The notes below the pieces were generated by a model. The model did no database searches. It worked only from the letters and a program-made list of their open reading frames with translations, and was not told the DNA's origin. A program made the position numbers and the translations under genes. A stretch of DNA of 41,481 nt from Treponema sp. (GTDB lineage: Bacteria; Spirochaetota; Spirochaetia; Treponematales; Breznakiellaceae), in assembly GCA_031284105.1 (NCBI GenBank), contig JAITAN010000256.1:1-41481 (forward strand). Direction: 5' to 3'. The stretch's first letter is position 1. Each line of letters opens with the position of its first letter. Shown piece by piece: positions 7,141 through 28,000 of this stretch.

Positions 7141-7246
7141 CACGGAAATTCTAAACGCCGGACGCGGCGGTAACAAAACCCGAAAACGCGGCAGGTTGAA
7201 TTCCATCCATAAAGCGGTATATGCCGCCTGCTATTTGACGAAAAAC

Positions 7247-9454
7247 ATGAAATATGCTATATTACAAAGCGATATGACAGAATTTGCAACCGAAAATTCC
7301 GGATTAAAAGAGGCGCGAAAAAGAATCAAACTTTTTTCAGAATCATGGGATATGGAACTTGACCTTTCCAATCTTGGATTGGAACATTTTCCGGCGGAAC
7401 TCATAGACGTCCCCGACATCGTTCAGGCTCTCAATCTCAGCGGGAATAAACTCGATGAATTACCGCCTGCCATAAGCGCATTTACCGCGCTTGAATCGAT
7501 TGATCTGAGCGGCAACCGGTTTTCAAAGCTGCCGGAAACGATTATCAACTTACAAAATCTCAGAAAGCTCAAGATAAACGATAATGATCTCGTCGAATTA
7601 CCTGAAAACATAGACAGGCTCTTCCTTCTGGAAACCCTTGACGTCAGCCATAACCGGCTCATCCGCCTGCCGGACAGCATTAAAAACCTCCGCAGGCTAA
7701 AAAATTTTGATTTTAACCTAAACAAACTCGCTGAAGTACCGAATTCCGTTAAAAAATTTGCCTATACCAGAAAAACAAACATCTTGACCCATATCAGAAA
7801 ACTTACGGATATGACGGCCGAGTGCGAAGATGTTTTTACCGATGTTTTTTTCGAGAGATCCGCGCCCCACCTCAAAGCCCTTATGGAGCGGTTTCATCTT
7901 ACGCCGGTACAGGCGATTATTTATGCACAGCTTCTTCTGCACTACGATGAGCAATCAATCTCCATCCGTGAAATCGCCTCTGCGATCGGCTTATGCAGCC
8001 TCGAAATGCTTCCCTATCTGAAGGAATTTGATGAACTTGAACGTAAAAAACTCCTTCTTTGTAGGCGTCCGGCTGAGAGTGAACCCGCTACCTACTGCAT
8101 ACCGCCCGAAGTGGTAGAGTCTCTGCGTATGGATAAGCCGTACAAGATCGAAACGTACGAAAATGTGAGTACCGAGACGTTTTTTGAAACGATGGACAAA
8201 TTGTTCGATCAACATGGCAATAGCGAATTGAGTTACGGCGCTTTTGTCACGGAAGTACAAAACTTGATGAATAACAATATGCAGATATCGTTCTGCAAGA
8301 AAATACGAGAAGCGAATCTCGAAACCGCCGATATGGTTCTCCTGCTCAGGTTCTGTCAGCGCCTCGTTTTCTATAATGATGACGCCATCGGCATAAGCGA
8401 TATAGGCGGTATCTTTAATGATGATGTATTCAAAAAATTCGCTCGCTTATTCAGAGAAGGAGAATTCGAGCTTATAAAGCGCGGGTTTGTTGAAATGAAA
8501 GAAAACGGCGAGTATGATGTGGATATCTTTGACGACAGCGAACTATACTCCCTTACGCCGGCGGCAAAGGAGGATTTACTCGGAGAACTCGATCTTAAAC
8601 CGCCGAAAAAGACCGCGGCGAAGAAGGATATCCTCATTCCTTATGGGAGTATTACGGCAAAAAGAATGTTCTACAATAAAAAAGAAGAAGGGCGGATACA
8701 AGAGCTTTTTTCCGTGCTGCGTGCGGATAACTTTAAAGCCGTACAAGTGCGCCTTGCTGAAAAAGGCTTGCGTACCGGCTTTGTCTGCCTTTTTTCAGGA
8801 GCGCCCGGTACCGGAAAGACCGAGACCGCGTATCAATTAGCCCGTGAAGATGAACGCGACCTTATGGCTATCAATATCACGGATATTCAGAGCAAATGGG
8901 TAGGGGAGAGCGAGAAAAATCTGAAAACGGTCTTTGAAAACTACCGTAAAGCCGTTCAAAAGCAGAATCAGGAAGGCAAACAGATACCCATCCTTCTTTT
9001 TAATGAAGCGGACGGCATCATCTCCAAACGTTTTGAATTGGGAAACGCGAGCAGGTCTGTGGATCAGATGATGAACAGCCTCCAAAGCATCATTCTGGAA
9101 GAAATGGAAAAACTGCCCGGCATCCTTATCGCCACGACCAACCTTGTTCAAAACATGGATAAAGCTTTTGAACGCCGTTTTCTGTACAAGATCGAGTTTG
9201 AAAAACCGGACGCCGCCGTGCGCCAAGCCATTTGGCGGAATATGCTGCCCATACTCCATGATGATGAGGCAAAAGCGCTTGCAGTACGTTTTGAATTCTC
9301 CGGCGGACAAATCGAGAATATCACCCGTAAATCAATTACCGATTATGTACTTACCGGTACAGAAACTTCTTTTGAAAAACTACTCAAATTCTGCAAAGAA
9401 GAACAGTCGGCAAAACACGACGAACGGCAAATAGGGTTTACGGTAGGGATATAA
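7247..9454 (+). CDS. Multidomain protein: N-terminal leucine-rich repeats, central winged-helix-like region, C-terminal classical AAA+ ATPase
   Basis: ORF 7196..9454, with possible starts at TTG 7196, ATG 7247 and ATG 7274. About six LRRs of the L..L.L..N.L..LP type lie at nt ~7358-7766 (LDLSNLGLEHFPAEL, LNLSGNKLDELPPAI, IDLSGNRFSKLPETI and others). Walker A GAPGTGKT is at 8798-8821. Walker B ILLFNEAD is at 8990-9013. Sensor-1 is ATTN and the Arg-finger region is DKAFERRF. Confidence 0.85.
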   Translation: MKYAILQSDMTEFATENSGLKEARKRIKLFSESWDMELDLSNLGLEHFPAELIDVPDIVQALNLSGNKLDELPPAISAFTALESIDLSGNRFSKLPETIINLQNLRKLKINDNDLVELPENIDRLFLLETLDVSHNRLIRLPDSIKNLRRLKNFDFNLNKLAEVPNSVKKFAYTRKTNILTHIRKLTDMTAECEDVFTDVFFERSAPHLKALMERFHLTPVQAIIYAQLLLHYDEQSISIREIASAIGLCSLEMLPYLKEFDELERKKLLLCRRPAESEPATYCIPPEVVESLRMDKPYKIETYENVSTETFFETMDKLFDQHGNSELSYGAFVTEVQNLMNNNMQISFCKKIREANLETADMVLLLRFCQRLVFYNDDAIGISDIGGIFNDDVFKKFARLFREGEFELIKRGFVEMKENGEYDVDIFDDSELYSLTPAAKEDLLGELDLKPPKKTAAKKDILIPYGSITAKRMFYNKKEEGRIQELFSVLRADNFKAVQVRLAEKGLRTGFVCLFSGAPGTGKTETAYQLAREDERDLMAINITDIQSKWVGESEKNLKTVFENYRKAVQKQNQEGKQIPILLFNEADGIISKRFELGNASRSVDQMMNSLQSIILEEMEKLPGILIATTNLVQNMDKAFERRFLYKIEFEKPDAAVRQAIWRNMLPILHDDEAKALAVRFEFSGGQIENITRKSITDYVLTGTETSFEKLLKFCKEEQSAKHDERQIGFTVGI

Positions 9455-12504: not shown

Positions 12505-14457
12505 TCAATGATACATTCTCATACTGAACTCAGTTTCAACCCGTTCATTTGGTTCTAACGAGATTTGTTTAATAGGCATGATGTTGGTCGATTGGTACAT
12601 ATCAATCAGTTCACCTTCAATAGGGCAAAGCGTTCTCACAGGCAATATATACGCATCAAAGAGTTTGTCCGAAGCGATGATGATGATCACTTCGTTTTTT
12701 ATATCTTGAAATTTGATGCCCTGAACTTGTTCAACTACTTCTCCAATACTAATGGTTTCTTTTATATCAGTGTTGATTTTATAAATCCGCAGGAAGGCAT
12801 CTCCTTCACCGGGAAAAGAGAGATCGATGCTGGGGATAAACGTAAATGTTTCATTGCTTGTTCCCCTGTTGATAAGCGCATAATGAATAGAAAGCGTGCT
12901 TTTTTTAAGCTGATACGTCTTTTCTACTTCTATGTTTCCATACGGAACACTACCATTCACCGGAAGCCTGAAACTGACTTTTCCGTGCGTTTTGTCTACT
13001 TCCACAACCTCAAAAATTTCATTTTTGCAGAAACGGAAAGCATTTTCATCGGGTCCGGCTTCTAAAAAGCCCGTTTGCACGGTCTGCCTCTTTATTTCAT
13101 CGATGCGGTCGACAAATGCCGCCTCAAAAATTGCTCTGGGTGCAAGAATATCTGTCCATGAAGCCCGTTTGCAACAATTTACACCCGCGTCGAGTGAGAA
13201 AGTATCCAAATAGTTCCATGACTTTGGCAAATAATCCAGTTCAAAAACATCCGCTCCTAATGTTTTAACATAGCAATTAATGAGTTCTTCCTGAAAAAGA
13301 TATTCTTCCTTCCCGTCCAGATCAAAGTCAAACGCCATAAGCGAAGGGGTAAATGTCCCTTTTTCCCTGCTTATCTTTTCCGCTTCAAGTAACACCTTAT
13401 AAGCCGCTTTACGTACCGAATGGCGGTAAATACCGCCATTAGAGGTCGGGTAGAATGCATCATAGCCCTGCGCCTTCCAAATTTCTTCCCGTGCGGTACG
13501 TTTCCGGGATTTATCTCCATGAAGCTGGTTGATAAGTACATTTGTGAACATCATCTTCGAATACAAATAATTAGCTTCGGGGTAGTCAATCAGGGATTGC
13601 CGCGGTGATTCATATTTTAGCTGTCCGCGCCGCATGTGTTCCGGCAGTGAAGACAAACTTAAAGACGGAGGAAAATACGCCTTTTTGAGACCGGTCAGCG
13701 TATTGTACACTTTGAGCGGAACGGTAAAATCAACATTTTTTTCAAAACGAGAAATATCCTCAAAAAACATCTGATACGTAATATCTGGCGCTTGTTCCTT
13801 GTTCTCCATAAAAACCTGTTCGGGAAACACACACAGTACACAGGGTTCGTCAGACTTTGTTTGAGCAAGAAGAGTTTCCATAACAAGCGAAGCCCGTTGC
13901 TGCGCGAACAGTAAGTTGAACTTGTTTGATATGGGAAATACGGTGAGTAACTTTCCTTGATCTTCCGTGATGCACGGCGCAGTATCGGGTAGCCCTGCCA
14001 GAGAAAATTGCTCTCCATTAAGGAATGTATAAAGCATACCGCAGTTATTCAGAACGCCAACAAGGTTTTGTTCCCACGCAAACGCCGGTAGTCTGCACCC
14101 TTGTGGTCGTTTGCCGAATTGTTTGCGGAGGTACGTTGTCAGTAACTCGATCTGCCCGATCTTATCGGGCGGCGGAATCAAAGGAAACATAGGCTCGTAA
14201 AAACCACCTCCCAACAATTCTACCTGTTTTTTGGAAATCATGTCCGCAAGAAGCATGAAGAATTCGGGATGCGCCCGTTCCAGCCAGTAGAGAAGTATCC
14301 CGGAATAATGCAAAACCACCGGAATTTGAGGATATTTATATAATGTTGAAATAAACGGCTTGAGGTTCCTCCTGTAAATTTTCTCAAATTCGTCATCGGT
14401 TGTTCCAAAAGGAATATGGTTATGTGAGCCTAGTATAAGACTAACCTTTTTTTTCAT
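12505..14457 (-). CDS. Glycoside hydrolase family 57 protein (alpha-amylase / 4-alpha-glucanotransferase type)
   Basis: N-terminal GH57-like motifs LGSHNHIPFG, VLHYSGILLYWLE and ELLGGGFYEP. 650 aa with a long C-terminal extension. Confidence 0.8.
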   Translation of the reverse strand: MKKKVSLILGSHNHIPFGTTDDEFEKIYRRNLKPFISTLYKYPQIPVVLHYSGILLYWLERAHPEFFMLLADMISKKQVELLGGGFYEPMFPLIPPPDKIGQIELLTTYLRKQFGKRPQGCRLPAFAWEQNLVGVLNNCGMLYTFLNGEQFSLAGLPDTAPCITEDQGKLLTVFPISNKFNLLFAQQRASLVMETLLAQTKSDEPCVLCVFPEQVFMENKEQAPDITYQMFFEDISRFEKNVDFTVPLKVYNTLTGLKKAYFPPSLSLSSLPEHMRRGQLKYESPRQSLIDYPEANYLYSKMMFTNVLINQLHGDKSRKRTAREEIWKAQGYDAFYPTSNGGIYRHSVRKAAYKVLLEAEKISREKGTFTPSLMAFDFDLDGKEEYLFQEELINCYVKTLGADVFELDYLPKSWNYLDTFSLDAGVNCCKRASWTDILAPRAIFEAAFVDRIDEIKRQTVQTGFLEAGPDENAFRFCKNEIFEVVEVDKTHGKVSFRLPVNGSVPYGNIEVEKTYQLKKSTLSIHYALINRGTSNETFTFIPSIDLSFPGEGDAFLRIYKINTDIKETISIGEVVEQVQGIKFQDIKNEVIIIIASDKLFDAYILPVRTLCPIEGELIDMYQSTNIMPIKQISLEPNERVETEFSMRMYH

Positions 14458-14467
14458 TTTTCCACTT

Positions 14468-15470
14468 TTCTCCTATGGCAAGGCTGATTAATTGCGGGGA
14501 ACCGATTTTGAGGGTGTTTTATCGGACAAGAAGAGAATGCTCCCATGGTAGACTGCTTTTACGCCGTTTAACAGAGCTTTGCCCTCCCCATCCATCCTTT
14601 TCCCTGCTTTCCATGAAAAAAGACGGACTTCCCTCTATCACGCTACCACGGCCCGTTTGACAGGACTCATCGCCCATGCTCATTTCAGCAGAGCCAACGC
14701 TTGCAAACACATATACAACCGCCCGCCGTTCTTCATTATTCCCCGGTATACCACGTTCCCGTATCCGAATAGCCCCTTCACTATATAAAAGATATGCTCC
14801 TCACTTTATGTTTCATCGGCTCCTTATACAACACCGCCTCCCGTTTCCCCTCCGCCCCCTTCCCTTTGTTTATCCGTTACTCCACCTTCGATACACGTTC
14901 ATCTTCCTTTATCTCTTCCCTCTTCTCTATCCCCGGATATCCGGCATCGCATCGGCGTTCACAAGCTCGTCATCTTCCCGTATCAATGTGCCCACTTCCT
15001 CTCTGTCGTTTACATTCGCCGCCGCCGTACCCACACCGTGTAACCATCCCGCTCCCCGCGTCTACTCCTCTATGCGCCTTCATCCAGAAATGCCGTTCGT
15101 TCCCTTTCCTGCACCGATACATTTCCGGTCCCGACTCTTTGCCCCGTTCTTCGTTGATGTCGGCGCCTCTACGGTTATTACGTCTATTATGCTCCTTCTT
15201 TTTTCCAACACGCGGATACATCCTCGGCATGGTTTGTATCCCTTTGGGCGGCCATCCGCGTTTCCCTTGAAAATAAGAGGGGCGTATTTGTTCCTAAAGT
15301 CTTTTCCACGGGACAAGACGTTCCATAGTATCCAAAAATACTTCTCGCCTGCTTATCCGTTTACGCTTCCCGTATTCTAATCCATAAATGTTTGTTACTT
15401 TTCAGGCTCTCTATTCTACTCCATCCATTCCGATTTAATCTGCGCTTCCCTAGCTATTGGCTAATTGGTT
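14468..15470 (-). pseudogene. Decayed IS5-family insertion sequence (transposase pseudogene), relic 1
   Basis: Minus-strand fragments retain the DDE-region signature FWMKAHRGVDAGSGMV, compared with the canonical (K)AHIGVD..SG..H...TAANV. 14468-14797 is about 75-80% identical to 23072-23397. 14990-15130 aligns with 37300-37440. No intact ORF remains. Confidence 0.75.
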
Positions 15471-15479
15471 CATGCGTGT

Positions 15480-16079
15480 TCAAGCCGCACTCAAAACACG
15501 TAGCAGGAGCGCTGTAGTTGAAGTGAAAACAAGCGATAAAAAACCCATAGATATAAGCCGTAACGGTTTTCCTCGTAAAAATATAGGTACAGCTTCAATA
15601 GAAGAGCGTTTTTGAATTTCATTTAATATAAGGATTGAAAACAGAACCCCTAAAGAGAAACTCAAGGAAATAATACAAGCCTCCACTATGGTTGAGGCTA
15701 TATGCATCGTAAACAGCAGCGCCGTAAATGCAAGCCCATCGTATGCCGTTACCGCACTGAACAGCTTCCTTCGCGGAACGAGGTGCGGGGTAAAACGATC
15801 CGCCGCGAATTCAAGTGCCCAACAGAAAAGTATAGAAAATGGGAATAAAAGAACGTCCTTAAAAAGAATAGAAAAAAACGGTCTCGTAATATAAAAAAAC
15901 AAAGTCCAGAGCACAAAAACTGTTATAAACAACACGCCGGCTTGAAAGAAAGGCAATGGACAAGCGCTGTTTGTGGTACGATCTCCATCTTCCGATAGGT
16001 CATGAATTCCCAATCCAAACTGAACTATCAGATTAAGAGAAAGACTTGCGAAAAGAGCCAGTGATACTAAGGCTATCAT
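15480..16079 (-). CDS. RnfA/NqrE-family membrane subunit, divergent (Rnf-like complex)
   Basis: 199 aa, polytopic. The C-terminal IEAVPIFLRGKPLRLISMGFLSLVF matches the RnfA signature (VP.PFRG....LI..G..SLAF). Canonical GLCPF reads GLGIHDL and canonical TTNC reads TAYD. There is a 1-nt TAATG overlap with the upstream gene. Confidence 0.8.
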   Translation of the reverse strand: MIALVSLALFASLSLNLIVQFGLGIHDLSEDGDRTTNSACPLPFFQAGVLFITVFVLWTLFFYITRPFFSILFKDVLLFPFSILFCWALEFAADRFTPHLVPRRKLFSAVTAYDGLAFTALLFTMHIASTIVEACIISLSFSLGVLFSILILNEIQKRSSIEAVPIFLRGKPLRLISMGFLSLVFTSTTALLLRVLSAA

Positions 16080-16705
16080 TATACTGTCCTCCTTGAAGGT
16101 TTTATAATCGTATAAAACAACGCTATTATATAGCCTAACAGCAGCAAAGCACCCGAAACTGTCGCTAGGGTACGTATGGGAAAAAAGTCCGTCTTATCAG
16201 AAGCGTTAAACAATTCAATAAAACCTTGTGCACCGCCCGGAAGCGAAAGCGCCATGAATCCCAACGGCTCTCTGATAAGGGAAAGAGCGATGATAATGAT
16301 GCCTGTTACGCACGCTCCACTCATTGTTTCAAATACGGTCTCAGATATGTTTAGCGGCTCCAGTTTCTCAAGGGGAAATCTTCCAAGAAAAGACACCGGA
16401 ACCAGCAACGTAACATACAAAAGCTCCACTGTCAACAAAGGACTTATAAACCAGAGAACAAAGAGAAATACTGCCGTAATAAAACTGGACAAAAATACCA
16501 CGACGATAATTTTTCCCTCATGTGGTAATAGTGGTCTTGCCGCAAAGACCGCTAGTGCCGTTAAGACATATACCCATACAAGGGCAACGGTAATCACAAT
16601 GCCAAATGACAACCGACTTGAAGAAAAAAGCAGAAGTCCCACGCACATCAACGTGAAAAGAGGATTCTGTGTATTAAAAAAGATTTGCGATACGCTTTTT
16701 CTCAT
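16079..16705 (-). CDS. RnfE/NqrD-family membrane subunit, divergent (Rnf-like complex)
   Basis: 208 aa, polytopic. SGACVTGIIIIALSLIREPLG aligns with the RnfE G.GATCAMFVLGSLREIIG. The canonical VTNC motif is absent (LLVPVSFLGRF). 4-nt ATGA overlap with the upstream gene. Confidence 0.8.
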   Translation of the reverse strand: MRKSVSQIFFNTQNPLFTLMCVGLLLFSSSRLSFGIVITVALVWVYVLTALAVFAARPLLPHEGKIIVVVFLSSFITAVFLFVLWFISPLLTVELLYVTLLVPVSFLGRFPLEKLEPLNISETVFETMSGACVTGIIIIALSLIREPLGFMALSLPGGAQGFIELFNASDKTDFFPIRTLATVSGALLLLGYIIALFYTIIKPSRRTV

Positions 16706-17121
16706 GGCAGCATCTCCTTTTCGATACGCCTAATATAAGTATCAATTACTCCTCGGTGAATACCATTGAAAACCGCCCGTGCATGATTGCTCAGAGGGAG
16801 AACCCCGATCTTGTCGGCAGTTTCACCAGTTCCGGGAATAAACGCCAAACATGAAACTAAAATACCGTTATCAATTATGGAGAAAAGAAGGGCTTTACCT
16901 TCAAATCCACCGCTTGTACCAGTAAACCGATACCAAGTTCCAAGTGAAGTTCTGCCGAGAACCTCTTTATCCAAGCGCCTCGTATCTTCCGTCTGAGCGA
17001 GCGTTTTATTTACCGCCTGTATAAGCGCATCGTTTTGTACGGATCGGGTTAAAAAGAACAAAAGCCAGAGACAAAGAAGCAGTCCGGCTATCCAAGCACA
17101 TACGATACCTGTATTTTTCAC
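16702..17121 (-). CDS. Short RnfG-like membrane-anchored subunit lacking the FMN acceptor motif
   Basis: 139 aa with one N-terminal TM helix. GFEGKALLFSIIDNGILVSCLAFIPGTGETADKIG aligns with RnfG GYSGAIQLLVG.D..G.....V..H.ETPGLGDKI. The C-terminal LPLSNHARAV aligns where RnfG has TGATITPRAV, and no [ST]GA[ST] is present. 4-nt overlaps on both sides. Confidence 0.65.
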   Translation of the reverse strand: MKNTGIVCAWIAGLLLCLWLLFFLTRSVQNDALIQAVNKTLAQTEDTRRLDKEVLGRTSLGTWYRFTGTSGGFEGKALLFSIIDNGILVSCLAFIPGTGETADKIGVLPLSNHARAVFNGIHRGVIDTYIRRIEKEMLP

Positions 17122-18080
17122 AATACAATCCCCCGTTTGGTGTACAAAGTTCGTCTCTCAATCCCCCGGACCATGGGAACCAGCACGTTCAGCAGAGCCA
17201 CCGCAAAGAATGCACCGTACGCTTCCCCACCTTGATACCTGAAGGTAAAAGTGAAAACAGCCGCTATAAAAGCGGCCGACAAGGCTCCCCATATTGATTT
17301 TGGTCCAGTAACCGGCTCTGTTACCAGAAAAAACGCCGCAACCAATGTTCCACCCGACAGAAATCCGCCCAAAATGTCGCCGTTACCAAAACCGCCTCCT
17401 GCAGGTAATGCGCCAAAAAGCCGTATCAGCAGTCCGTATACGCCAAGGTAGACAATAGGTACCCACGCGCGGCTCACTTGAGACGCCAGCATGAGAATCG
17501 TTCCCAAAAGAAGCGCCATCACGCCTCTATCTGCAATGATGTTTGCACCGGTTGCATTGAATAGTGTTATATAACTGTCGGGCAGTTCTGCGCCAAAAGT
17601 TGAAAACACGGTTTTATTCAAAAAGTCACTGATAATGCCCGCAATAATCTCATTTTTGGGAACTGTCGTACTTGCTAAAGCCTGCTCGTACGCAGACTGC
17701 CAGCTGAAGCGGATAAAAAGCCAGCCGCCTAGTGCAGGATTCAACCAGTTGGTACCGAGACCGCCGAAACTGTACTTAACGACTATCATGGCAAAGACCA
17801 CGCCTATTGCCGCATATATCGGGTTGATATGGTTCGGTAACATCAGGGTTAACACTAAAGCCGATGTAACGGCGCTTCCATCCCTGAGCATGGCGGCTTT
17901 TTCGGTTCTGAAATAGACGATGAATTCACAGAAAAATGCCACAATTATCGTTGTTACCGCGATAATAAGAGACAAGAAAGAATCTGATATGGAAGACTGC
18001 ACGATCGCCATGAAAGCGGCAAGACTTACCAGCCACATTCTGCTCGTTGTAGAGCGGGAAAGATTTACCTGAGGTCTCAT
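17118..18080 (-). CDS. RnfD/NqrB-family membrane subunit, divergent (Rnf-like complex)
   Basis: 320 aa. Family signatures are present: FGGLGTNWLNPAL, GGTLVAAFFLVTEPVTGP and GGEAYGAFFAVALLNVLVP. The region expected to hold D..[ST].A-T-PL reads FNATGAN (17541-17558). Confidence 0.85.
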   Translation of the reverse strand: MRPQVNLSRSTTSRMWLVSLAAFMAIVQSSISDSFLSLIIAVTTIIVAFFCEFIVYFRTEKAAMLRDGSAVTSALVLTLMLPNHINPIYAAIGVVFAMIVVKYSFGGLGTNWLNPALGGWLFIRFSWQSAYEQALASTTVPKNEIIAGIISDFLNKTVFSTFGAELPDSYITLFNATGANIIADRGVMALLLGTILMLASQVSRAWVPIVYLGVYGLLIRLFGALPAGGGFGNGDILGGFLSGGTLVAAFFLVTEPVTGPKSIWGALSAAFIAAVFTFTFRYQGGEAYGAFFAVALLNVLVPMVRGIERRTLYTKRGIVL

Positions 18081-19393
18081 GTATGCGCTCCTTTACTGAT
18101 TGCGCGAATGGTAGTACTGATAGGCAGTCGTGAAGGACAGACCACTTCACAGCACCCGCATCCATGGCAATCTACCGAAGGTGGATTCTCCGGCATACTG
18201 ATGATCTGTTTGTACAACGACTCAGGATCAATCCCCATAGGGCAGACTGCACGACACTCCCCGCAGCCGATACAGCTTCTTGAAACGGTACCGCCGATCT
18301 CCTTTGCCAAAAGCGCTAACACCGCATAACTTGTTTTTGTTACCGGTTCATCAAGATCAAGCACGGTACGCCCTAAGAAAGGCGACCCTATCACAATCCG
18401 TGCGGGATCAGCTATAAGTCCGCCGCATTGCTCAAAAACATCGCGGAGCCGCGTTCCTATACGCACCTTCAGCACATTAGGCGCCTTCACCGCAGAACCG
18501 CCTATGGCAACGTACCTATCCAGTATTGGTTTGTGGAATTTTACCGCATCGTGTATCGCGGATGCTGTAGAAGGGCATAACATAAAAAGACGTCCCAACA
18601 AGGCGTTTTCTTTTTTTTCATAATCTCTCAGTACCAACTCAAGTTCCCGCTGGTTGTGTTGAGGGTATCTGTTTCCTACGGCTACTACCGCTATGGGAGT
18701 GTTTACAGGATACAAATTGTGCAAAATTTGTACCGTTTTCCGTATGTTATCTATAAGCTGTTTTTCCTTATAAGAAACGGCGTATACGATGCTCGTTGCC
18801 CTGCACGCCTTTGCTGTAATGAGACTGCCTTCAACAACAGCCATGAGCCGTTCATTGCAGATCGCTTTGTCTGCGGCAAACCAAGCGTTGTCAAACACGC
18901 AACGGATTACCACAGTGACTGCCTCTTTCTCCGTAGCAAGATCGTCAAAGAGGTCTACAACCGGTCTTTCCCCTTCATCCATTTCAACTATGCCGTATTC
19001 CGCTATGAGGTGCTGTAATTCAGAGAGTTGTAGATCGATCCACGGATATGCAGGTTCTTTTTTCCCTAACCGTTCAAAACTTCCTTCCATACGTATAACA
19101 AGGGCTTCGTTGACGGTACCGTCTACGGTCTTCCATGAAACCATACGTACGACTTTTCCGGGTACTGTTGCATGAATATTTGCGGAGCCTTGCCCCTGAC
19201 CGCGCCCTATCAGCATACCTTCTTTGACATATTCCCCGATAAACACAATCGGGTACGCCTTGTTTCCCGTATGCTGAATCAAGGATATTACCGACAATAC
19301 CGGTAAAAATGCCGTCTCTGTTGAAGCGCTCTGCGGCGCATAAGGGTCTTCAAAAACAAACCCGCCTCGGGAAAATGAGTACGTTTTTTTCAT
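18077..19393 (-). CDS. RnfC-like subunit retaining two 4Fe-4S motifs but lacking the NADH/FMN-binding motifs
   Basis: The start is most likely ATG 19393 (MKKTYSF...), which forms an ATGA overlap with the stop of the upstream gene. The ORF extends to 19423. The N-terminal RnfC barrel-sandwich region is present (LIQHTG..., HATVPGKVV). CIGCGECRAVCP and CHGCGCCEVVCP lie at 18134-18274. Canonical GLGGAGFPT reads GIVEMDEGERP (18947-18997) and NAAECEPY reads RCVFDNAW. Confidence 0.85.
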   Translation of the reverse strand: MKKTYSFSRGGFVFEDPYAPQSASTETAFLPVLSVISLIQHTGNKAYPIVFIGEYVKEGMLIGRGQGQGSANIHATVPGKVVRMVSWKTVDGTVNEALVIRMEGSFERLGKKEPAYPWIDLQLSELQHLIAEYGIVEMDEGERPVVDLFDDLATEKEAVTVVIRCVFDNAWFAADKAICNERLMAVVEGSLITAKACRATSIVYAVSYKEKQLIDNIRKTVQILHNLYPVNTPIAVVAVGNRYPQHNQRELELVLRDYEKKENALLGRLFMLCPSTASAIHDAVKFHKPILDRYVAIGGSAVKAPNVLKVRIGTRLRDVFEQCGGLIADPARIVIGSPFLGRTVLDLDEPVTKTSYAVLALLAKEIGGTVSRSCIGCGECRAVCPMGIDPESLYKQIISMPENPPSVDCHGCGCCEVVCPSRLPISTTIRAISKGAHT

Positions 19394-21021
19394 GCAGCTA
19401 TCCGTTTGCGGAACAAGTTCCATTTTTTATTATATACTAGCATGTCCTTTTTCCTGTATCTTTTTTGTCCGATATTAAACAACGCAAGAATGCATGGTAA
19501 GATGAGCATCATTATGGGGAGCATATTCTGCGTATCAATATCGGTTTTTACTACATTTTGTTCATTATGCCCTGATTTATCCAAAAAATCCACAAGACTT
19601 TCCAAAGAAAAGGATGGAAAATCGCCGAAATCTCCAATAATTTTTTCTTGTATGCCGGTTCCGCCATTATTCGCGTCATTCAATGATTCGGGAAGGTGTA
19701 TCATACCGGACAAATATTCGCCGTACTCTTTTGTTCCCGTTATAAGTCCATCTTCTCCAACATAATAATGTACATACGTATTACCAATTTTTTTTTCCGA
19801 ATCCACTCCAAGCGAGGTAAACGAAAATGAGGTTTGAAAGGCGAGGTGCGCTTCGTAATCACTCCTCTGAATCAGGTAATCTCCTAGGTACTCGGAGCCT
19901 TCGCGGTATGCGGTAAGCCCCAGTTCGCCGGGCAATATCAAAGCTAGAAAAGCCGCAATGGTAAAAGGAATCGCAGCGCGGGTAAACAACGGCGTTTTGG
20001 CGATGTTTCCAATAATAGGTACCGGCGTGAATCTAATGTGATCCTGCGAACCGCCTTTGTTCGATTCGCCCCACAAAACGAGCGGCAGGACAATACAGGC
20101 GCACCCAAAAACCGCCGCTTCGAACACAAGCGATACGTTGCTAATTATTCCGGTGTATACGTACAGGGCAATAAATAAAAGAAACAAACCGATACTAACT
20201 AAAAGTCCAAGCGGTTTTATATTCGGCAACCGTTGCGCGGCGGTGTGTGCCGTACGCTTGGTGTTTAGTTTTATTCTTTTAACAGGGTGAAAAAAGTACA
20301 TTATCCGTGTCCAAATCGTCTTTTTTGCGTTTCCATAACGCCCTGCGGCAAATAATACCCGCAACGGGGCGGTGATGACGCTCGCCATGGTAAGCATAAT
20401 CGCCGAAAGCGCCAACCCTGCAGAACCGGTAAACGCAAAGCCCGCAAAAAGCGGCGTAAGCGCGAGGGTGATTACCGGCGATTTTGACACCAGTACGGAC
20501 AAGAGCGATGCAATGGCAAACAGCAGGAAGTAAAACATAATAGGTCTATCATAACCCAAAAACTCAATGGAAAAAGGAATATCGCCAAGCGCCTCTGTAA
20601 AAGCCGTGTGTACGGCGCGCGTACCGAGCCTGTTCGCTTCAACCGAAAGCGGAATAAAAAACAGCCGCTTATCATCGCGGACAAAGAATTCCTTGAGCTT
20701 TTCAGCATACCCATCATGCCGCGGATCAAAATCTTCTAAACGTCCTTCCCAAAGGTCTAAGGGAATCGACTCCAGTTCACCGAAATTATCAAGAAAAACC
20801 ATTTGTGTTGATTCCGAAATGTAGAAGCGGCCCAAGTCGATCCGTGAAAGACATTTTCCGATCTCCCTGTCCGGGTACGACGCGTCAAAAGCCAGCACTG
20901 CGTATCCGTTGCTTCCCTCATGTGGTATGATCTTTTCCGCGAGCCTGAAAAGAAATGCCGCAAAGCTCAAAGAGCATACCACGAGTAAAATAACAGGGAT
21001 AATCCGCGATTTCAAAGACAT
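19390..21021 (-). CDS. Hypothetical polytopic membrane protein (543 aa), translationally coupled to the RnfC-like gene
   Basis: Long ORF. An N-terminal TM helix is followed by a soluble domain of ~120 aa, then a block of about 7-8 hydrophobic helices (aa ~160-360), a second soluble domain and a C-terminal TM helix with a basic tail. Its stop TGA (19392-19390) overlaps ATG 19393 of the next gene. Confidence 0.75.
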   Translation of the reverse strand: MSLKSRIIPVILLVVCSLSFAAFLFRLAEKIIPHEGSNGYAVLAFDASYPDREIGKCLSRIDLGRFYISESTQMVFLDNFGELESIPLDLWEGRLEDFDPRHDGYAEKLKEFFVRDDKRLFFIPLSVEANRLGTRAVHTAFTEALGDIPFSIEFLGYDRPIMFYFLLFAIASLLSVLVSKSPVITLALTPLFAGFAFTGSAGLALSAIMLTMASVITAPLRVLFAAGRYGNAKKTIWTRIMYFFHPVKRIKLNTKRTAHTAAQRLPNIKPLGLLVSIGLFLLFIALYVYTGIISNVSLVFEAAVFGCACIVLPLVLWGESNKGGSQDHIRFTPVPIIGNIAKTPLFTRAAIPFTIAAFLALILPGELGLTAYREGSEYLGDYLIQRSDYEAHLAFQTSFSFTSLGVDSEKKIGNTYVHYYVGEDGLITGTKEYGEYLSGMIHLPESLNDANNGGTGIQEKIIGDFGDFPSFSLESLVDFLDKSGHNEQNVVKTDIDTQNMLPIMMLILPCILALFNIGQKRYRKKDMLVYNKKWNLFRKRIAA

Positions 21022-21029
21022 GTTTTACC

Positions 21030-21503
21030 CTACAAAAAGACATACGCCGCGGCGATAAAAATGCCCAGCAATCCGCCGACTACCACTTCAAGCGGGGTAT
21101 GCCCATGTATTTCTTTAACCGGATGGTATTCGATTCCTGTTTTTTCAGCGACATTTCTCCCCAAAAAATTTAAGGCGCGCCCTTGTATGCCGGAAGCACG
21201 CCGAACGCCCATTGCGTCCCGTATGACGATCATGGCAAACCACAACGAAATGATAAAGATATTTGAATCAAGTCCTTCCTTGAAAGCCGTTGAGATTGTC
21301 ATAGAAGTAACAAGCGCCGAATGACTTGAAGGCATACCGCCTGTACGCCATGTGAGGACTTCAATCACTTCTTTTATCGTCTTCTTTCTGCGCCTTCTGG
21401 ATAACACTATCACCGCCTTGATAAACTGCGCGAGAAACCAGCTCGTAACCGGCGCTAGAAAAATAGGATTTTCAAAAAACCTCTTTACGGACGCTGTATT
21501 CAT
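21030..21503 (-). CDS. Divergent PAP2 family membrane protein (DUF212; acid phosphatase/vanadium haloperoxidase-related)
   Basis: Signatures GGMPSSHSALV, IVIRDAMGVRRASG and KEIHGHTPLEVVVG. 157 aa. 8-bp gap to the downstream gene. Confidence 0.85.
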   Translation of the reverse strand: MNTASVKRFFENPIFLAPVTSWFLAQFIKAVIVLSRRRRKKTIKEVIEVLTWRTGGMPSSHSALVTSMTISTAFKEGLDSNIFIISLWFAMIVIRDAMGVRRASGIQGRALNFLGRNVAEKTGIEYHPVKEIHGHTPLEVVVGGLLGIFIAAAYVFL

Positions 21504-22845: not shown

Positions 22846-23071
22846 GGCTATTATAATAACATAGAAAAGAAGTAATTGACAAGGGTATTATAAAAAAGTT
22901 ATACGAAATGACCTCCTAAAAATTCTTTCAGAAACAATAGGGTAAAGGACGGTAACGTATAGGAATCGGCATTAAAGGTATTGGTAAAGCGGCGTCTTTG
23001 TCCCGCGTTTACCATAGCGGGCGCGTCCATGCCGCCTGAAATTTTCCCCCCATCGGCAAGAAAAAATCTTA

Positions 23072-24186
23072 CCTCTAGGGCAACGCCGATTAATTGCGGG
23101 GAAACGGTTTTGAGGGTGTTTTATCGGATAAAAAGAGCAAGCTCTCATACCCTGCCGCTTTTACGCCGTTTAACAGGGCTTTTGCCTTCCCTATCCGTCC
23201 TTTCCTGCTTTTTCATAAAAAAGGACGGACTCCCCCCTATTACGCTCCCGCAGCCCGTTTTACAGGAATCATCGTCCACGCCCTTTGCAACAGGGCCGGC
23301 GCTTGCAAACACATACACAACCGTTCTTCATTATTCTCCGGTATACTACGTTCCCGGTATCCGAATAGCCTCTTCACTATATAAAAGATACGGTTCTCTT
23401 TGCTCTTCACGGTTGATTTCAGCTCCGCCGGCTCCTTCGCCCAGCCTAGGCGCGTGCCCACACATAAGGCGGGGACTTTGCGAAGCAAAGCCCCGCGGAG
23501 CCGCCCCCTCTAATACTTGGGGGGTCGCCCCTCTAATGCCGGGGGCGATGACCCTCTAATGCCGGGGGCGATGACCCTCTAATGCCGGAGGGGTCAACCC
23601 CTCTAATGCTGGGGGTGATGCCCCTCTAACGCTGGGGGCGATGCCCCTCTAACGCTGGGGGGTCAACCCCTCTAACGCTGGGGGCGATGACCCTCTAGTG
23701 CCGGGGGGTCAATCCCTCTAACGCTGGGGGCGATGACCCTCTAGTGCTGGGGGGTCAACCCCTCTAATGCCGGGGGTGATGACTCTCTAATGCCGGGGGT
23801 GATGCCCCTCTAATGCCGGGGGGTCAACCCCTCTAACGCCGGGGGCGTATCGAAGCAAAGTCTCACGGAGCCGCCTCCTCGCTGCCGGTTGCGTTAGACG
23901 CTTTCGGCATGAGCCGTGAGTTTGAACTCATGGCGCACTTCTAGCCTAGGCGCGTACCCCCACACCCGGCCTGAAGAGAACCCTCACTCCTGCCCGGCGT
24001 GAATCCTCATTTACAACCATTCTCACACCGGTAGATGAGCGCGTTATGCAAGGTTTGATTGTCTATAGCAACATTTCCCCGCCGTTTCGGCGGCAATGGC
24101 GCTATTTGCAGGTATTGTTTCCCGCTTAGTTCCATACTTATTTTTCTCTCTTTACTTCTCGTTCCTTTTGCGAATACGCCCTAGGG
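23072..24186 (-). pseudogene. Decayed IS5-family element, relic 2, with its central part replaced by a tandem array
   Basis: Minus-strand fragment IVKRLFGYRERSIPENNEERL..ALL matches the IS5 transposase C-terminal signature (KR.FGY.KVRYRGL.KN......ALANL). 23072-23397 is homologous to 14468-14797. 24022-24186 is homologous to 37495-37600. Confidence 0.7.
23506..23846 (+). repeat. 23-bp tandem repeat array of about 15 units (CCCTCTAATGCCGGGGGCGATGA)
   Basis: Units phase at 22-24 bp (for example 23529-23551 and 23552-23574 are identical). Two unit subtypes are interleaved, ending in gcgatga or ggtcaac. The array is flanked by the direct repeats cgaagcaaag(c/t)c(c/t)c(g/a)cggagccgcc at 23481 and 23851. 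Stops occur in all six frames. Confidence 0.95.
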
Positions 24187-25058: not shown

Positions 25059-28000
25059 ATGGCAATAGTAGGAAATATAATAACGCTCCTCATCGTTGGA
25101 GTAGTGCTTTTTTTGTACCGTCAGCTTGATAAACGAAATCGTTCTCTTGATAAAGTGCGCAAATATGCGGAACACCTCAAAGATGAACTTTCCGTTTTTG
25201 TAGCCGGGAAAGAAAGCGCGGTAAAAGATTACAGTATAGACCTTGATGTACAGCAGAAATCCGCTAAGGAATTGATGCATAAGCTCAAGCTGACGGAAGA
25301 AGAGCTTGCGGAAAAGGCAAAGGCTATAGCGAAAATTGATGAGCGTATAAATGCCTATGATACTTCTTTAGAAGAACTGGTACGCATGACGGGTTTGGTA
25401 CAGGAAAATTTGGATCGTATCAGCGAAGAATCGGCTTTTGTAGAAACAGTCAACAAAAAGGTATCCGATGCCCGCGATAAATTGTTCGTGTTTGAGAAAG
25501 AACTTGTCGGGCTGAAACAGCGCTTTGAACAGGATAATGCGGTAGCCCTGTCAAAACTTTCAAATAGTATGCTTACCGAGGTGAAATCTTCTATTGTTGC
25601 GCTTAAAACGGAGTCTGAACGGATTCAGCGCAACGTTACGGAGCAGCGGGAAGCGATTGAAAAGACCGAACAGGTACGTTCCGCAAATCTTGCCAGAGAC
25701 ATGGAAGCGATCAACAAAACCCTTCAGGAAGTTGCCGAACGTGCAGGGGCAACGGCGGGCAGGATGGAAGAGGCGACTCTTGTCAAATTGAAGGCTCAAT
25801 CTGAGGAGCGTATCCGGCGCTTGCAGAATTCAATAGAAGAAAATTTGAGGTTGCATCAGGAAAGCGCGCGGGAGCGGCTTGTCGAGCTTAACGGTATCGC
25901 GGCAAAACAACTGGAAAGCTGGAATATCAGCAGTAAGGACATCGAAGACCAGCGGCAGCGTTTCGTGGAGGAATGGTCGCGCGGTGTTGAAGAAGTTACC
26001 GTGCTGCTCAAGACCCGGCAAGCCGAATGGATGACTGCTGCCGATGAAAAAGAGGCGAATTCTAAACAGATATTGTCGGAAGCGGAACATGCCGCAGCGA
26101 GCATACGTTCCTATATCGTTGAACAAAACGATGCCCTTGAGCAGAAACTGAAAGAGACCCGGACGCACATGGATGAAACTATCACGGCTTTGGAAGATCG
26201 GCTTGTCAATGCTTCGCGTATTGCGGAACAAAAAGTGATGGAACGGGCGGATGAAAGGCTCGGCAGTTGGCGGCAGGTTGCTCTTGATGCGGATGCGAAT
26301 CTGCAAAAGACGTTGTTGGGTCTTGAAGCTTCTTCCGATCAGATAAAAAATTTCTTTGAACATGAGTGCGCTATCTTGGAGCAGCGGCTCAAAGATACAA
26401 AGAAACAGACGGAAGATGATATTGCCCTGCTGAAGCAGCAAATCTTCGATACGGCTCAGGAAGCCGAAGCAAAGGTGTCCGAAGAAGCGGACGCGAACCT
26501 TGAGCAGATTTACCGCTCTTTTGAGAATATGGATAAACAGTTTACCGATATGCAGAGTAAAACCAACGATGCCGTTTCCCTTATGGAGGCCCGGCTCAGG
26601 GAGACCGCCGCTGCATCTGAGAAACGAGTGCTTGAGAGTGCAGATACTCGCCTTGAAGACTGGAAACAGGTTGCCGCTAATACGGAGGTAAAACTCAAGA
26701 GCTTGTTACACGAAATAGAAATATCTCATGATGCCGCTCATTCGCAGCTCGAAACGGAAATGGGGCATATCCGGCAACAGCTTGACGGCGCTCGTGTACA
26801 TACGGAACAAGCCATCGCGGAACTGGAGAACAGCATAGCAAAGACGGCGGCTGCCGTGGATGCAAAAATAGCAAGCGAAGCCGATGCGAAACTCGTCCGG
26901 TGGTTGCATGAGTCAGAGAATCAGGATACGAAGGCAAAACAGATACTCGAAGAGCTTGAAGATGTAACCGCACAGGCGAAGATGCATTTTGCTTCTGAAA
27001 TAGAAGCCTTCAATAAGCGGATTGATGAAGAGCGCATCTATACTGATGAAGTAATTGTAGAATTGCGAGACAAATTCGCTATAGAAGCGGAGGCGCTTGA
27101 TGGTAAAATCGGCGATGCTGATGTCCGTACAGACAATGCCATACTTGAGCTGGATAAACAGATTAGCGCGGCGTGCGCCGAATTGAGAGAAGATATTGCA
27201 AAGACGGCGAGTACTGCCAAAGCTGATATTGCAGATGATCTTAATGCCGCCGAAAAGCAGAATAAGCTGCGGGTAGCGGAACTTGAGGCGTCTTTTGCCG
27301 ATACGAAGGCTCATTTAGACGAAGAAATAGCGAAAGCGGAAGAACAAGTGCAGGCTTTCCGGGAGCGGTTTAAAGAAACCGTAACGCATATTGAAGACGC
27401 GGTGAATACTGCCGTCAGTAATACGGACATTAAAGCGGAACATGCCGCAAACGACCGCCTTGTCCGGTGGAAGTCGGCGTTTGAAGCGGGAGATGCGCAA
27501 ATCGTTCGGCGGCTTGCGGAATTGGAAGGCTTGTCTACACAGACGAAAGCCGGCATTAACGCTGATTTGGATGGTATTAATGAAAAAAACGCTCGGCGTC
27601 TCTCGGAATTGGAAACAATGTGGATGCAGACGAAAGAAGCCATTTCATCAGAACTTGACCATGCCGGTGAACAGAACAAGGCGCGTGTAGCCGGGTTAGA
27701 GGCGTCTTTTGCCGAAGTTAAAGAACGTATTGCAAGCGAAATAGCGGAAACCGAGTCTCATCTGCACAGTATTGAGAAGAAGGTTGATGAAACCATGAGC
27801 GGCATTGAGGATGCCATGAGTACCGCGGTTGCCAATACGGATGCCAAAGTGGAGAACGCGGCGAATGACCGGCTGGAGCAGTGGAAGCATGCGTTTGAGT
27901 CGGGCGATGAGCAAAATATGAAGCGGCTTGAGGAACTGGAAACGCTGGCGGCCCGGACAAAGGCCGGCATTACTGCGGAACTGGACCAAGGCGGAGAACA

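Follow-up and report, generated by a model that had tools for sequence, protein, structure and literature searches.

In the canonical Rnf complex, electrons pass from ferredoxin to RnfB and then, by way of an intramembrane Fe site in RnfA and RnfE, the flavin mononucleotide (FMN) of RnfG, the FMN and the riboflavin of RnfD, and the Fe-S clusters and FMN of RnfC, to NAD+. In C. tetanomorphum, FMN is covalently bound at Thr153 of RnfD and Thr164 of RnfG, the ligands of the Fe site are Cys25 and Cys113 of RnfA and Cys26 and Cys109 of RnfE, which are invariant in Rnf and Nqr, and Asp248 and Asn124 of RnfD have proposed roles in Na+ and riboflavin binding (PMC9588780). A 2025 review of Rnf and Nqr describes the core transmembrane cofactors as strictly conserved and does not mention spirochetes (PMC12174285). 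In Treponema pallidum, tp0153-tp0148 have been described as a "noncanonical Rnf" operon, which is cotranscribed with tp0147 and conserved in treponemes (Deka et al. 2015, PMC4436053). Only TP0152 (RnfC), TP0151 (RnfD), and perhaps TP0149 (RnfE) are recognizable among its products, no flavinylation motif of the NqrC/RnfG type is present, and cryptic sites or noncovalent FMN have been suggested (PMC4436053). This operon is the centerpiece of a proposed flavodoxin-driven chemiosmotic pathway (PMC7512555, PMC11717252), and in the reconstruction of a related termite-gut spirochete, energy conservation was assigned to an Rnf complex (PMC12483993). Here, the 41,481-nucleotide (nt) contig JAITAN010000256.1 (assembly GCA_031284105.1) of a termite-gut Treponema sp., referred to at its full length as the window, is found to carry an Rnf-derived operon of six open reading frames (ORFs), which lie head to tail in the order X-C-D-G-E-A on the minus strand (15480-21021). 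The lineage keeps an Rnf complex under purifying selection after the loss of every core transmembrane cofactor whose binding site is legible in the sequence, as well as of RnfB and the FMN/NADH pocket of RnfC. It is a natural experiment on how the Rnf scaffold can serve once its electron loop is gone.

The window operon shares the order C-D-G-E-A with canonical Rnf (PDB entries 7zc6, 8ahx, and 9eri and locus L090, from the Spirochaetales metagenome-assembled genome [MAG] GCA_016342585.1), and the folds of C, D, and A, and probably those of E and G, match. The two [4Fe-4S] motifs of C and the GGLGxNxxNPA and TDPxT(S/G)P motifs of D, including the equivalents of Asp248 and Asn124, are also shared, and L090 has the same flanks, with DUF212 and X upstream and GH57 downstream. 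In contrast with canonical Rnf, the window has no RnfB, no FMN/NADH loops in C, and no acceptor motifs in D and G; a loop of D is deleted, the G-like protein has 139 rather than 186 amino acids (aa) and no FMN_bind signature, and A and E lack the four Cys ligands. No NqrF-like gene is found in the operon or among the annotated ORFs of the window, the best matches are to Rnf rather than Nqr models, and the 320-aa D-like protein is without the N-terminal extension of NqrB, all of which sets the operon apart from Na+-NQR. NqrA is an RnfC homolog that has no redox cofactors and is still an essential structural subunit (PMC12174285). It differs in that its Fe-S clusters have been lost too and NqrF compensates as the NADH entry, whereas the window protein keeps the clusters and no replacement entry module accompanies it.

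The T. pallidum operon, as compared by its published description only, has the same six-gene architecture: an unknown membrane protein, RnfC, RnfD, a small transmembrane (TM) protein, an RnfE-like protein, and a protein in the position of RnfA. From this description, we infer that tp0153-tp0148 is orthologous to the window operon. A published figure tentatively places TP0153 as RnfB; the protein in the homologous position here, X, is not RnfB. The missing flavinylation motif is already known for this apparent counterpart (PMC4436053); no paper was found that notes the loss of the RnfC nucleotide site, of the Cys ligands of A and E, or of RnfB.

Identification of the six subunits

The first-pass annotation of the window had described five Rnf homologs in canonical order, coupled by ATGA or TAATG overlaps (Table 1). 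Alignment to Pfam and NCBIfam models bears out C and D clearly, although all subunits score below the curated NCBIfam cutoffs and the G-like protein has no match; A is recognized by its profile, E is marginal, and G is identified by position and fold and shows no sequence similarity. The C-like protein contains the Pfam domains RnfC_N, Complex1_51K, SLBB, and Fer4, reaches 218.6 bits on TIGR01945 (cutoff, 245.95), and matches the PDB RnfC chain 7zc6_C with an E value of 1.9e-45, with its similarity to NqrA models being weak (E values of 4e-9 and weaker). The D-like protein matches PF03116 (E = 2e-52) and the PDB RnfD chain 9eri_D (E = 2e-19) and scores 114 bits on TIGR01946, the cutoff of which is 207. 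The A-like protein alone is weakly recognizable (TIGR01943, E = 4e-6; score of 27.3 versus a cutoff of 229.3), and a profile of its 27-sequence family matched NqrE and RnfA chains over their full length, with E values of 5e-11 to 1e-7. The E-like protein matches PF02508 with an E value of 1e-3 and scores 16.7 versus a cutoff of 184 on the RsxE model NF009070, with no match to the rnfE model. The single PDB match of its family profile is the RnfE chain 7zc6_E (E = 0.049), and its family hidden Markov model (HMM) gave E values of 8e-7 against RsxE in a 6-sequence search and 2e-16 against the RnfE of L090 in a 9-sequence search.

The G-like protein shows nothing in common with RnfG by phmmer, by its family profile against PDB, by Pfam on 34 family members, or by hhalign against the RnfG of L090. 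Its AlphaFold2 model (mean predicted local distance difference test [pLDDT] score of 84.5) contains one TM helix, a five-stranded sheet, and a terminal helix, and in a Foldseek search against 350,542 PDB chains, the four best matches were all RnfG chains (E values of 0.09 to 0.3; probabilities of 0.89 to 0.51). Because of these matches and the position of its gene, the G-like protein is likely a truncated RnfG without an FMN site.

The overlaps that couple the genes are ATGA at X/C, C/D, and G/E, GTGA at D/G, and TAATG at E/A. The coupling noted earlier is therefore present and extends to X, and the unit comprises six genes rather than five, since X is coupled to C by ATGA and is also conserved beside a canonical operon. 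An in-frame ATG at 19423 is an alternative start of the C-like gene and would give a protein of 448 aa.

Loss and retention of cofactor sites

In a scan of GTDB species representatives, 431 relatives came up, the best 80 of which are considered here. These 80 loci are nearly all from termite-gut MAGs of Treponema, Breznakiellaceae, or Spirochaetaceae, with B. homolactica included, and one or two MAGs are of other origin; the locus of T. primitia ZAS-2 was added separately. The most reduced form of the operon is found in the window clade, which consists of L003-L007, L009, L010, L013, L017, and L033. Residue conservation was counted in 79 C-like sequences, which are about 50% identical overall, and in 82 D-like sequences. 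The identities of the cofactor ligands were taken from the C. tetanomorphum structure (PMC9588780), the 2025 Rnf/Nqr review (PMC12174285), and a review of ApbE (PMC12052999).

In both profile and structure alignments, the glycine loop of the C-like protein reads GIVEMDEGERP and the position of NAAECEPY reads RCVFDNAW, exactly as they had been read by eye in the first-pass annotation. The canonical N and first E are replaced by R and F, and GGAGF is replaced by an acidic stretch. In the family, the consensus at the glycine loop is GIVEMEGsGRP, and the NAAECEPY position is RCVFDDPW, with each residue conserved at 93-100% (n = 79). RCVFDDPW, GIVEMEGxGRP, and YPQxNxRELE are at least 90% conserved among C-like sequences that are otherwise so divergent, and two new Cys residues, C165 (100%) and C179 (94%), are also present (n = 79). 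Judging from these alignments, the former NADH/FMN pocket of C is a remodeled, strongly conserved new site and not one that was simply stripped or eroded. The two [4Fe-4S] motifs of RnfC are the only ones among the cofactor sites that survive, as had been claimed, and each of their eight Cys residues (C374, C377, C380, C384, C409, C412, C415, and C419) is found in 79/79 sequences.

All four Cys ligands of the intramembrane Fe site are absent from the window proteins, in agreement with the earlier statement that A and E lack the TNC and GLCP Cys residues. In the A-like protein, Cys25 of RnfA is replaced by H26 and Cys113 by G115 (TAYDG at 15735-15749). In the E-like protein, Cys109 of RnfE is replaced by F106, and the position of Cys26 is not Cys; a Cys located two residues from this position is found in the window clade only. 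The equivalent of Cys109 is kept in 45 of the 79 family members and lost in the window clade. RnfB, which had been reported missing, is also absent here: tblastn searches of the window with RsxB and with the RnfB-like protein of locus L086 match only the Fe-S motifs of C, the operon has no Fer4 gene beyond C, and no rnfB pseudogene is detected by tblastn in the spacer at 14458-15479. In the best 80 of the 431 loci, those of termite Treponema, RnfB is absent as well.

The FMN acceptor site of RnfD had been placed at FNATGAN in the first-pass annotation, an alignment that proved to be shifted, as FNATGAN (17541-17561) pairs with FIGHVGG, immediately ahead of helix VI in RnfD. The loss of the acceptor motif itself is real: the true loop, which reads DPxGSPLxILK in longer Treponema relatives and D[AG]x[ST]xATPLxxLK in canonical representatives, is deleted in the window protein. 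Neither the strict flavinylation pattern D..[ST]GA[ST] nor a loosened pattern is found in the six window proteins, and the strict pattern is found in none of the roughly 80 homologous sets; the positive controls, E. coli RsxD and RsxG and the D protein of the intermediate locus L089, were all matched. The G-like protein lacks the TGAT motif, as stated earlier. The pairing of its LPLSNHARAV with TGATITPRAV is structurally plausible, with a helix starting there in the model, and Ser111 is not conserved in the family. In the D-like family, the equivalent of Asp248 (D/E255) is Asp or Glu in 82/82 sequences and the equivalent of Asn124 (N114) is present in 82/82, so the ion-path and riboflavin-associated residues of D are kept, with putative binding roles.

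Conservation and stepwise loss at one syntenic locus

The arrangement DUF212-X-C-D-G-E-A-GH57 occurs with intact ORFs in the best 80 of the 431 relatives and in T. primitia ZAS-2, which extends to other spirochetes the cluster and neighborhood seen in the window. Pairwise ratios of nonsynonymous to synonymous substitution rates (dN/dS) against three relatives are 0.11-0.32 across the six genes, compared with 0.08-0.15 for flanking housekeeping genes. The complex is maintained by purifying selection and is remodeled rather than decaying, since its ORFs are intact in about 80 species, its dN/dS values are low, and new near-invariant motifs have arisen, in line with the neofunctionalization proposed in the first-pass annotation.

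The cluster had also been taken for a paralog of a canonical Rnf. A paralog next to a canonical rnf operon is rejected, because in L090 the canonical operon occupies the same syntenic locus. The shared frame consists of genes for PolyA polymerase, TPR, (Asp23), pseudouridine synthase, DUF212, and X, the rnf genes, and GH57. L090 carries a canonical rnfCDGEAB operon with all motifs and a homolog of X: GLGGATFP and NGVECEPY in C, DGVSGAS in D, DSISGAT and a Pfam FMN_bind domain in G, LGLCP and xNC in E and A, and an RnfB of 285 aa. L089, which lies on a 5.5-Mb contig, has X-C-D-E-A; it keeps DALSGAT in D but only one of the four Cys residues, and G, B, and the glycine loop of C are gone. L086 has C, D, G, E, and A of the Treponema type together with a 196-aa RnfB-like remnant (best NCBIfam match, RnfB; E = 9e-16). 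The loci of termite Treponema follow, with no B, and then that of the window, in whose clade the D loop is deleted, G has 132-144 aa, the Cys109 equivalent of E is lost, and the C pocket is more divergent (EGERP and NAW). By this syntenic comparison, the window cluster is best described as a transformed positional ortholog of canonical spirochete rnf that was converted stepwise. The series from L090 through L089, L086, and T. primitia to the window provides comparison points for biochemistry.

Similar losses are seen in a separate C-D-E-A operon, L084:8698-12229, on a 2.7-Mb contig (ERZ25039512), which has no G between D and E, no X upstream, and a different neighborhood; upstream of it are two unknown proteins, one with "ACFWSNTT" repeats. 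Like the window, L084 and L089 have lost the glycine loop of C (GVVGFDDCIP and GVVGMGTDDRP, respectively), G, and most or all of the A/E Cys residues and have kept the Fe-S motifs of C. They differ in being closer to canonical Rnf: the C and D proteins of L084 pass the TIGR rnfC and rnfD cutoffs, with E and A matching Pfam Rnf-Nqr, and L089 keeps the flavinylation motif of D. L084 is also without the acceptor Thr of D (SGVNPL) and the A/E Cys residues (ANF, ANS, and LGVYP), and automated annotation would name it a normal Rnf. The metagenomic RnfD-family representatives P0189, P0191, P0193, P0196, P0231, and P0280 have no recognizable flavinylation motif, and some of them share the Treponema-type insertion W(L/V)N...LPxGYxDLF; the contigs of P0189 and of the motif-bearing P0197 are too short for gene context. 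Cofactor-poor RnfD may be more widespread.

X, the orphan product of the sixth gene

X has no match in Pfam, NCBIfam, or a PDB profile search. From hydropathy and charge, X is predicted to span the membrane about eight times and to have two acidic loops, each of some 130 aa, that appear to be periplasmic. D99, R101, Y105, H392, Q396, and F399 are invariant, as are the loop motifs FDPRxD..Y and YxxHxxFQ. An AlphaFold model from the single sequence has a pLDDT score of 41.8, which is too low for use. X is found upstream of C in about 64 of the best 80 loci and beside the canonical rnf operon of L090 (family HMM, E = 3.5e-21); it lies directly upstream of rnfC at L090:4078-5664, L089:6237-7688, and L086:5271-6674, as it does in the window. 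The identification of X as RnfB was considered and rejected, because L086 and L090 encode X plus a separate RnfB. Its presence at these loci marks X as an ancestral companion of spirochete Rnf, and in the window it belongs to a six-gene operon. X may be an unrecognized accessory subunit or assembly factor of spirochete Rnf and is an uncharacterized companion of spirochete rnf genes even beside a canonical operon.

Possible functions of the remodeled complex

The canonical U-shaped electron loop is impossible in the window complex, which has lost RnfB, the Cys site of A and E, the covalent-FMN sites of D and G, and the FMN/NADH pocket of C. Electron transfer from ferredoxin to NAD+, the role commonly ascribed to Rnf in treponemes, T. 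pallidum among them, is thus probably no longer its function. What is retained are the clusters of C, the ion-path and riboflavin residues of D, the rebuilt C pocket, the A/E/G scaffold, and X. Tentatively, and with somewhat less than even confidence, we prefer to view the complex as a shortened Fe-S/riboflavin-linked ion module rather than a ferredoxin- or flavodoxin:NAD+ oxidoreductase. In such a single-sided module, the C clusters, and perhaps also a noncovalent flavin in D, would exchange electrons either with a low-potential cytoplasmic carrier such as ferredoxin or flavodoxin or with a ligand of the new C pocket; the redox state would gate or drive the movement of Na+ or H+ through D, and X and G would form the periplasmic face. 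NqrA, as an RnfC homolog that has lost all cofactors, is a precedent (PMC12174285). Several points weigh against this view. The assignments of the E-like (E = 0.049) and G-like (E = 0.09) proteins are statistically weak. In most of the family, the C pocket has preserved GxGxP and DPW, although the window itself reads EGERP and NAW, and the remodeled pocket might therefore have retained nucleotide or flavin binding. The role of the Fe-S clusters could be structural alone, the binding of riboflavin or noncovalent FMN, which Deka et al. proposed (PMC4436053), is unreadable from sequence, and no terminal electron donor or acceptor can be named from the genes at hand.

One alternative is the model used for T. 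pallidum, in which the complex is a working Rnf-type redox pump that oxidizes ferredoxin or flavodoxin and reduces NAD+, with flavins that are noncovalent or attached at cryptic sites and with another point of electron entry (PMC4436053, PMC7512555, PMC11717252). The retained operon architecture and subunit folds, the conserved Fe-S clusters and D-channel residues, the GxGxP and DPW residues in the C pocket of most relatives, and the Ser in the DPxGSPL motif of some long-form relatives, which is a possible cryptic acceptor, are all consistent with such a pump. It is nonetheless improbable, as the four A/E Cys residues of a site that is invariant (PMC9588780) and strictly conserved (PMC12174285) are absent, tblastn finds no RnfB and no other entry module is present, the window clade lacks the D loop, no subunit in about 80 species has a flavinylation motif, and the C pocket has R and F for N and the first E and an acidic stretch for GGAGF; with neither the A/E site nor the FMN of G, electrons have no route that crosses the membrane and returns. 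Another alternative is a nonredox cation channel, transporter, or scaffold built from D, the A/E cores, and X, in which the C clusters would be structural or act as an oxygen or redox sensor. In its favor, the membrane subunits remained under purifying selection during the progressive loss of the sites that carry electrons, RnfD/NqrB has ammonium and urea transporters among its relatives (PMC12174285), the putatively periplasmic loops of X contain invariant polar residues, and NqrA again shows that an RnfC homolog can be free of cofactors. Yet the full conservation of eight cluster Cys residues and a new near-invariant pocket in the cytoplasmic C subunit suggest chemistry or ligand binding, and the neighbors hint at no substrate; DUF212 and GH57 are ancestral neighbors that are uninformative on a new function because they also flank the canonical operon. 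The nonredox explanation is rather unlikely.

Electrons might also travel only half of the canonical route, between the cytoplasm (the C clusters and a flavin in D) and a periplasmic partner on X or G, comparable to extracytosolic flavin-based transfer. In L089, the D-C half survives, with the periplasm-side FMN acceptor of D kept and G, B, and most of the A/E Cys residues lacking; the conserved surfaces of X and G are predicted to be periplasmic, and T. pallidum has a periplasmic flavin transferase for which an Rnf target was never found (PMC4436053). In the window clade, however, the periplasm-side FMN site of D is deleted with no replacement, X and G are without conserved Cys residues, His pairs, or flavinylation motifs, and no periplasmic redox partner is encoded nearby, and such a half-conduit is very doubtful. 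That the operon is a decaying remnant on its way to a pseudogene is scarcely credible: the loss of cofactor sites and of entire subunits (B and, in some lineages, G) and the scores below the family cutoffs would fit decay, but all six ORFs are intact and in synteny across about 80 species, with dN/dS values close to those of neighboring housekeeping genes, new invariant motifs, and preserved translational coupling. It is also plausible, though less likely than not, that the Rnf of numerous treponemes, that of T. pallidum possibly included, has become a membrane machine of a new kind. Only the Fe-S clusters of C, its rebuilt pocket, the ion path of D, and the spirochete-specific X, with its putatively periplasmic loops, would remain as its working parts, and it would link the redox or ligand state of the cytoplasm to a flux of cations or to a periplasmic process instead of carrying out ferredoxin- or flavodoxin:NAD+ oxidoreduction. 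Were this true, the present chemiosmotic model for T. pallidum and the "Rnf" calls made in reconstructions of the metabolism of termite-gut spirochetes would have to be revised. The genes of this family carry the annotation "RnfABCDGE type electron transport complex subunit D." If the T. pallidum operon has undergone the same losses, the long-standing question of how the membrane of this organism is energized reopens.

Genomic context and repeats in the window

Table 1. Genes and sites of the Rnf-derived operon and its nearest neighbors in the window
Feature	Position	Strand	Remarks
X	19390-21021	-	543 aa; first gene of the coupled unit; orphan membrane protein
C-like	18077-19393	-	438 aa as called; RnfC-like
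D-like	17118-18080	-	320 aa; RnfD-like, short form
G-like	16702-17121	-	139 aa; GTG start; lies between D and E
E-like	16079-16705	-	208 aa; RnfE-like
A-like	15480-16079	-	199 aa; RnfA-like
Former FMN-phosphate glycine loop of RnfC (GxGGAGFP to GIVEMDEGERP)	18962-18994	-	Aligned to GIVGMGGATFP of 7zc6_C and GVAGLGGAGFP of RsxC
Former NAD(H)/FMN loop (NAAECEPY to RCVFDNAW)	18881-18904	-	Aligned to 7zc6_C and RsxC
Two CxxCxxCxxxCP motifs, two [4Fe-4S] clusters of RnfC	18134-18274	-	Aligned to the RnfC ferredoxin domain
Deleted periplasmic loop with the FMN acceptor Thr of RnfD	17633-17681	-	Gap of about 40 columns versus long-form relatives
E255 of D-like, equivalent to Asp248 of C. tetanomorphum RnfD	17316-17318	-	By alignment
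DUF212 (divergent PAP2) membrane protein	21030-21503	-	PF02681, E = 2.5e-41; stop codon 8 nt upstream of the X start
GH57 alpha-glucan enzyme	12505-14457	-	Pfam matches; conserved downstream neighbor

The operon is flanked upstream by the DUF212 gene and a GH1 gene and downstream, after a spacer of about 1 kb, by the GH57 gene and a GT4 gene. The DUF212 neighbor is syntenic in nearly all loci, including the canonical L090. A promoter and terminator scan of the window gave counts not above those in shuffled sequence, with one good -35/-10 pair upstream of the GH1 gene, and an Rfam search over the whole window matched no family.

The block GH1-DUF212-X-C-D-G-E-A lies between the two copies, 77-89% identical, of a direct repeat about 330 nt long (14473-14802 and 23075-23398). 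The first copy lies within the spacer at 14458-15479 between the A-like gene and GH57; in the closest relatives (L003 and T. primitia), just 50-115 bp separate these two genes. The repeat has no Rfam match and no convincing ORF, and the peptide similarity of the spurious plus-strand ORFs at 14676-15380 and 22981-23559 comes from the shared repeat. Directly after the second copy, a tandem array at 23483-23782 contains about 13 copies of a 23-nt unit with a consensus of about CCCTCTAATGCCGGGGGCGATGA; the array is without spacers and is therefore not like clustered regularly interspaced short palindromic repeats. The window also encodes two leucine-rich-repeat proteins, one of the BspA type and one fused to an AAA ATPase, plus an ORF of 1796 aa (185-1999, 7196-9454, and 25059-30449).

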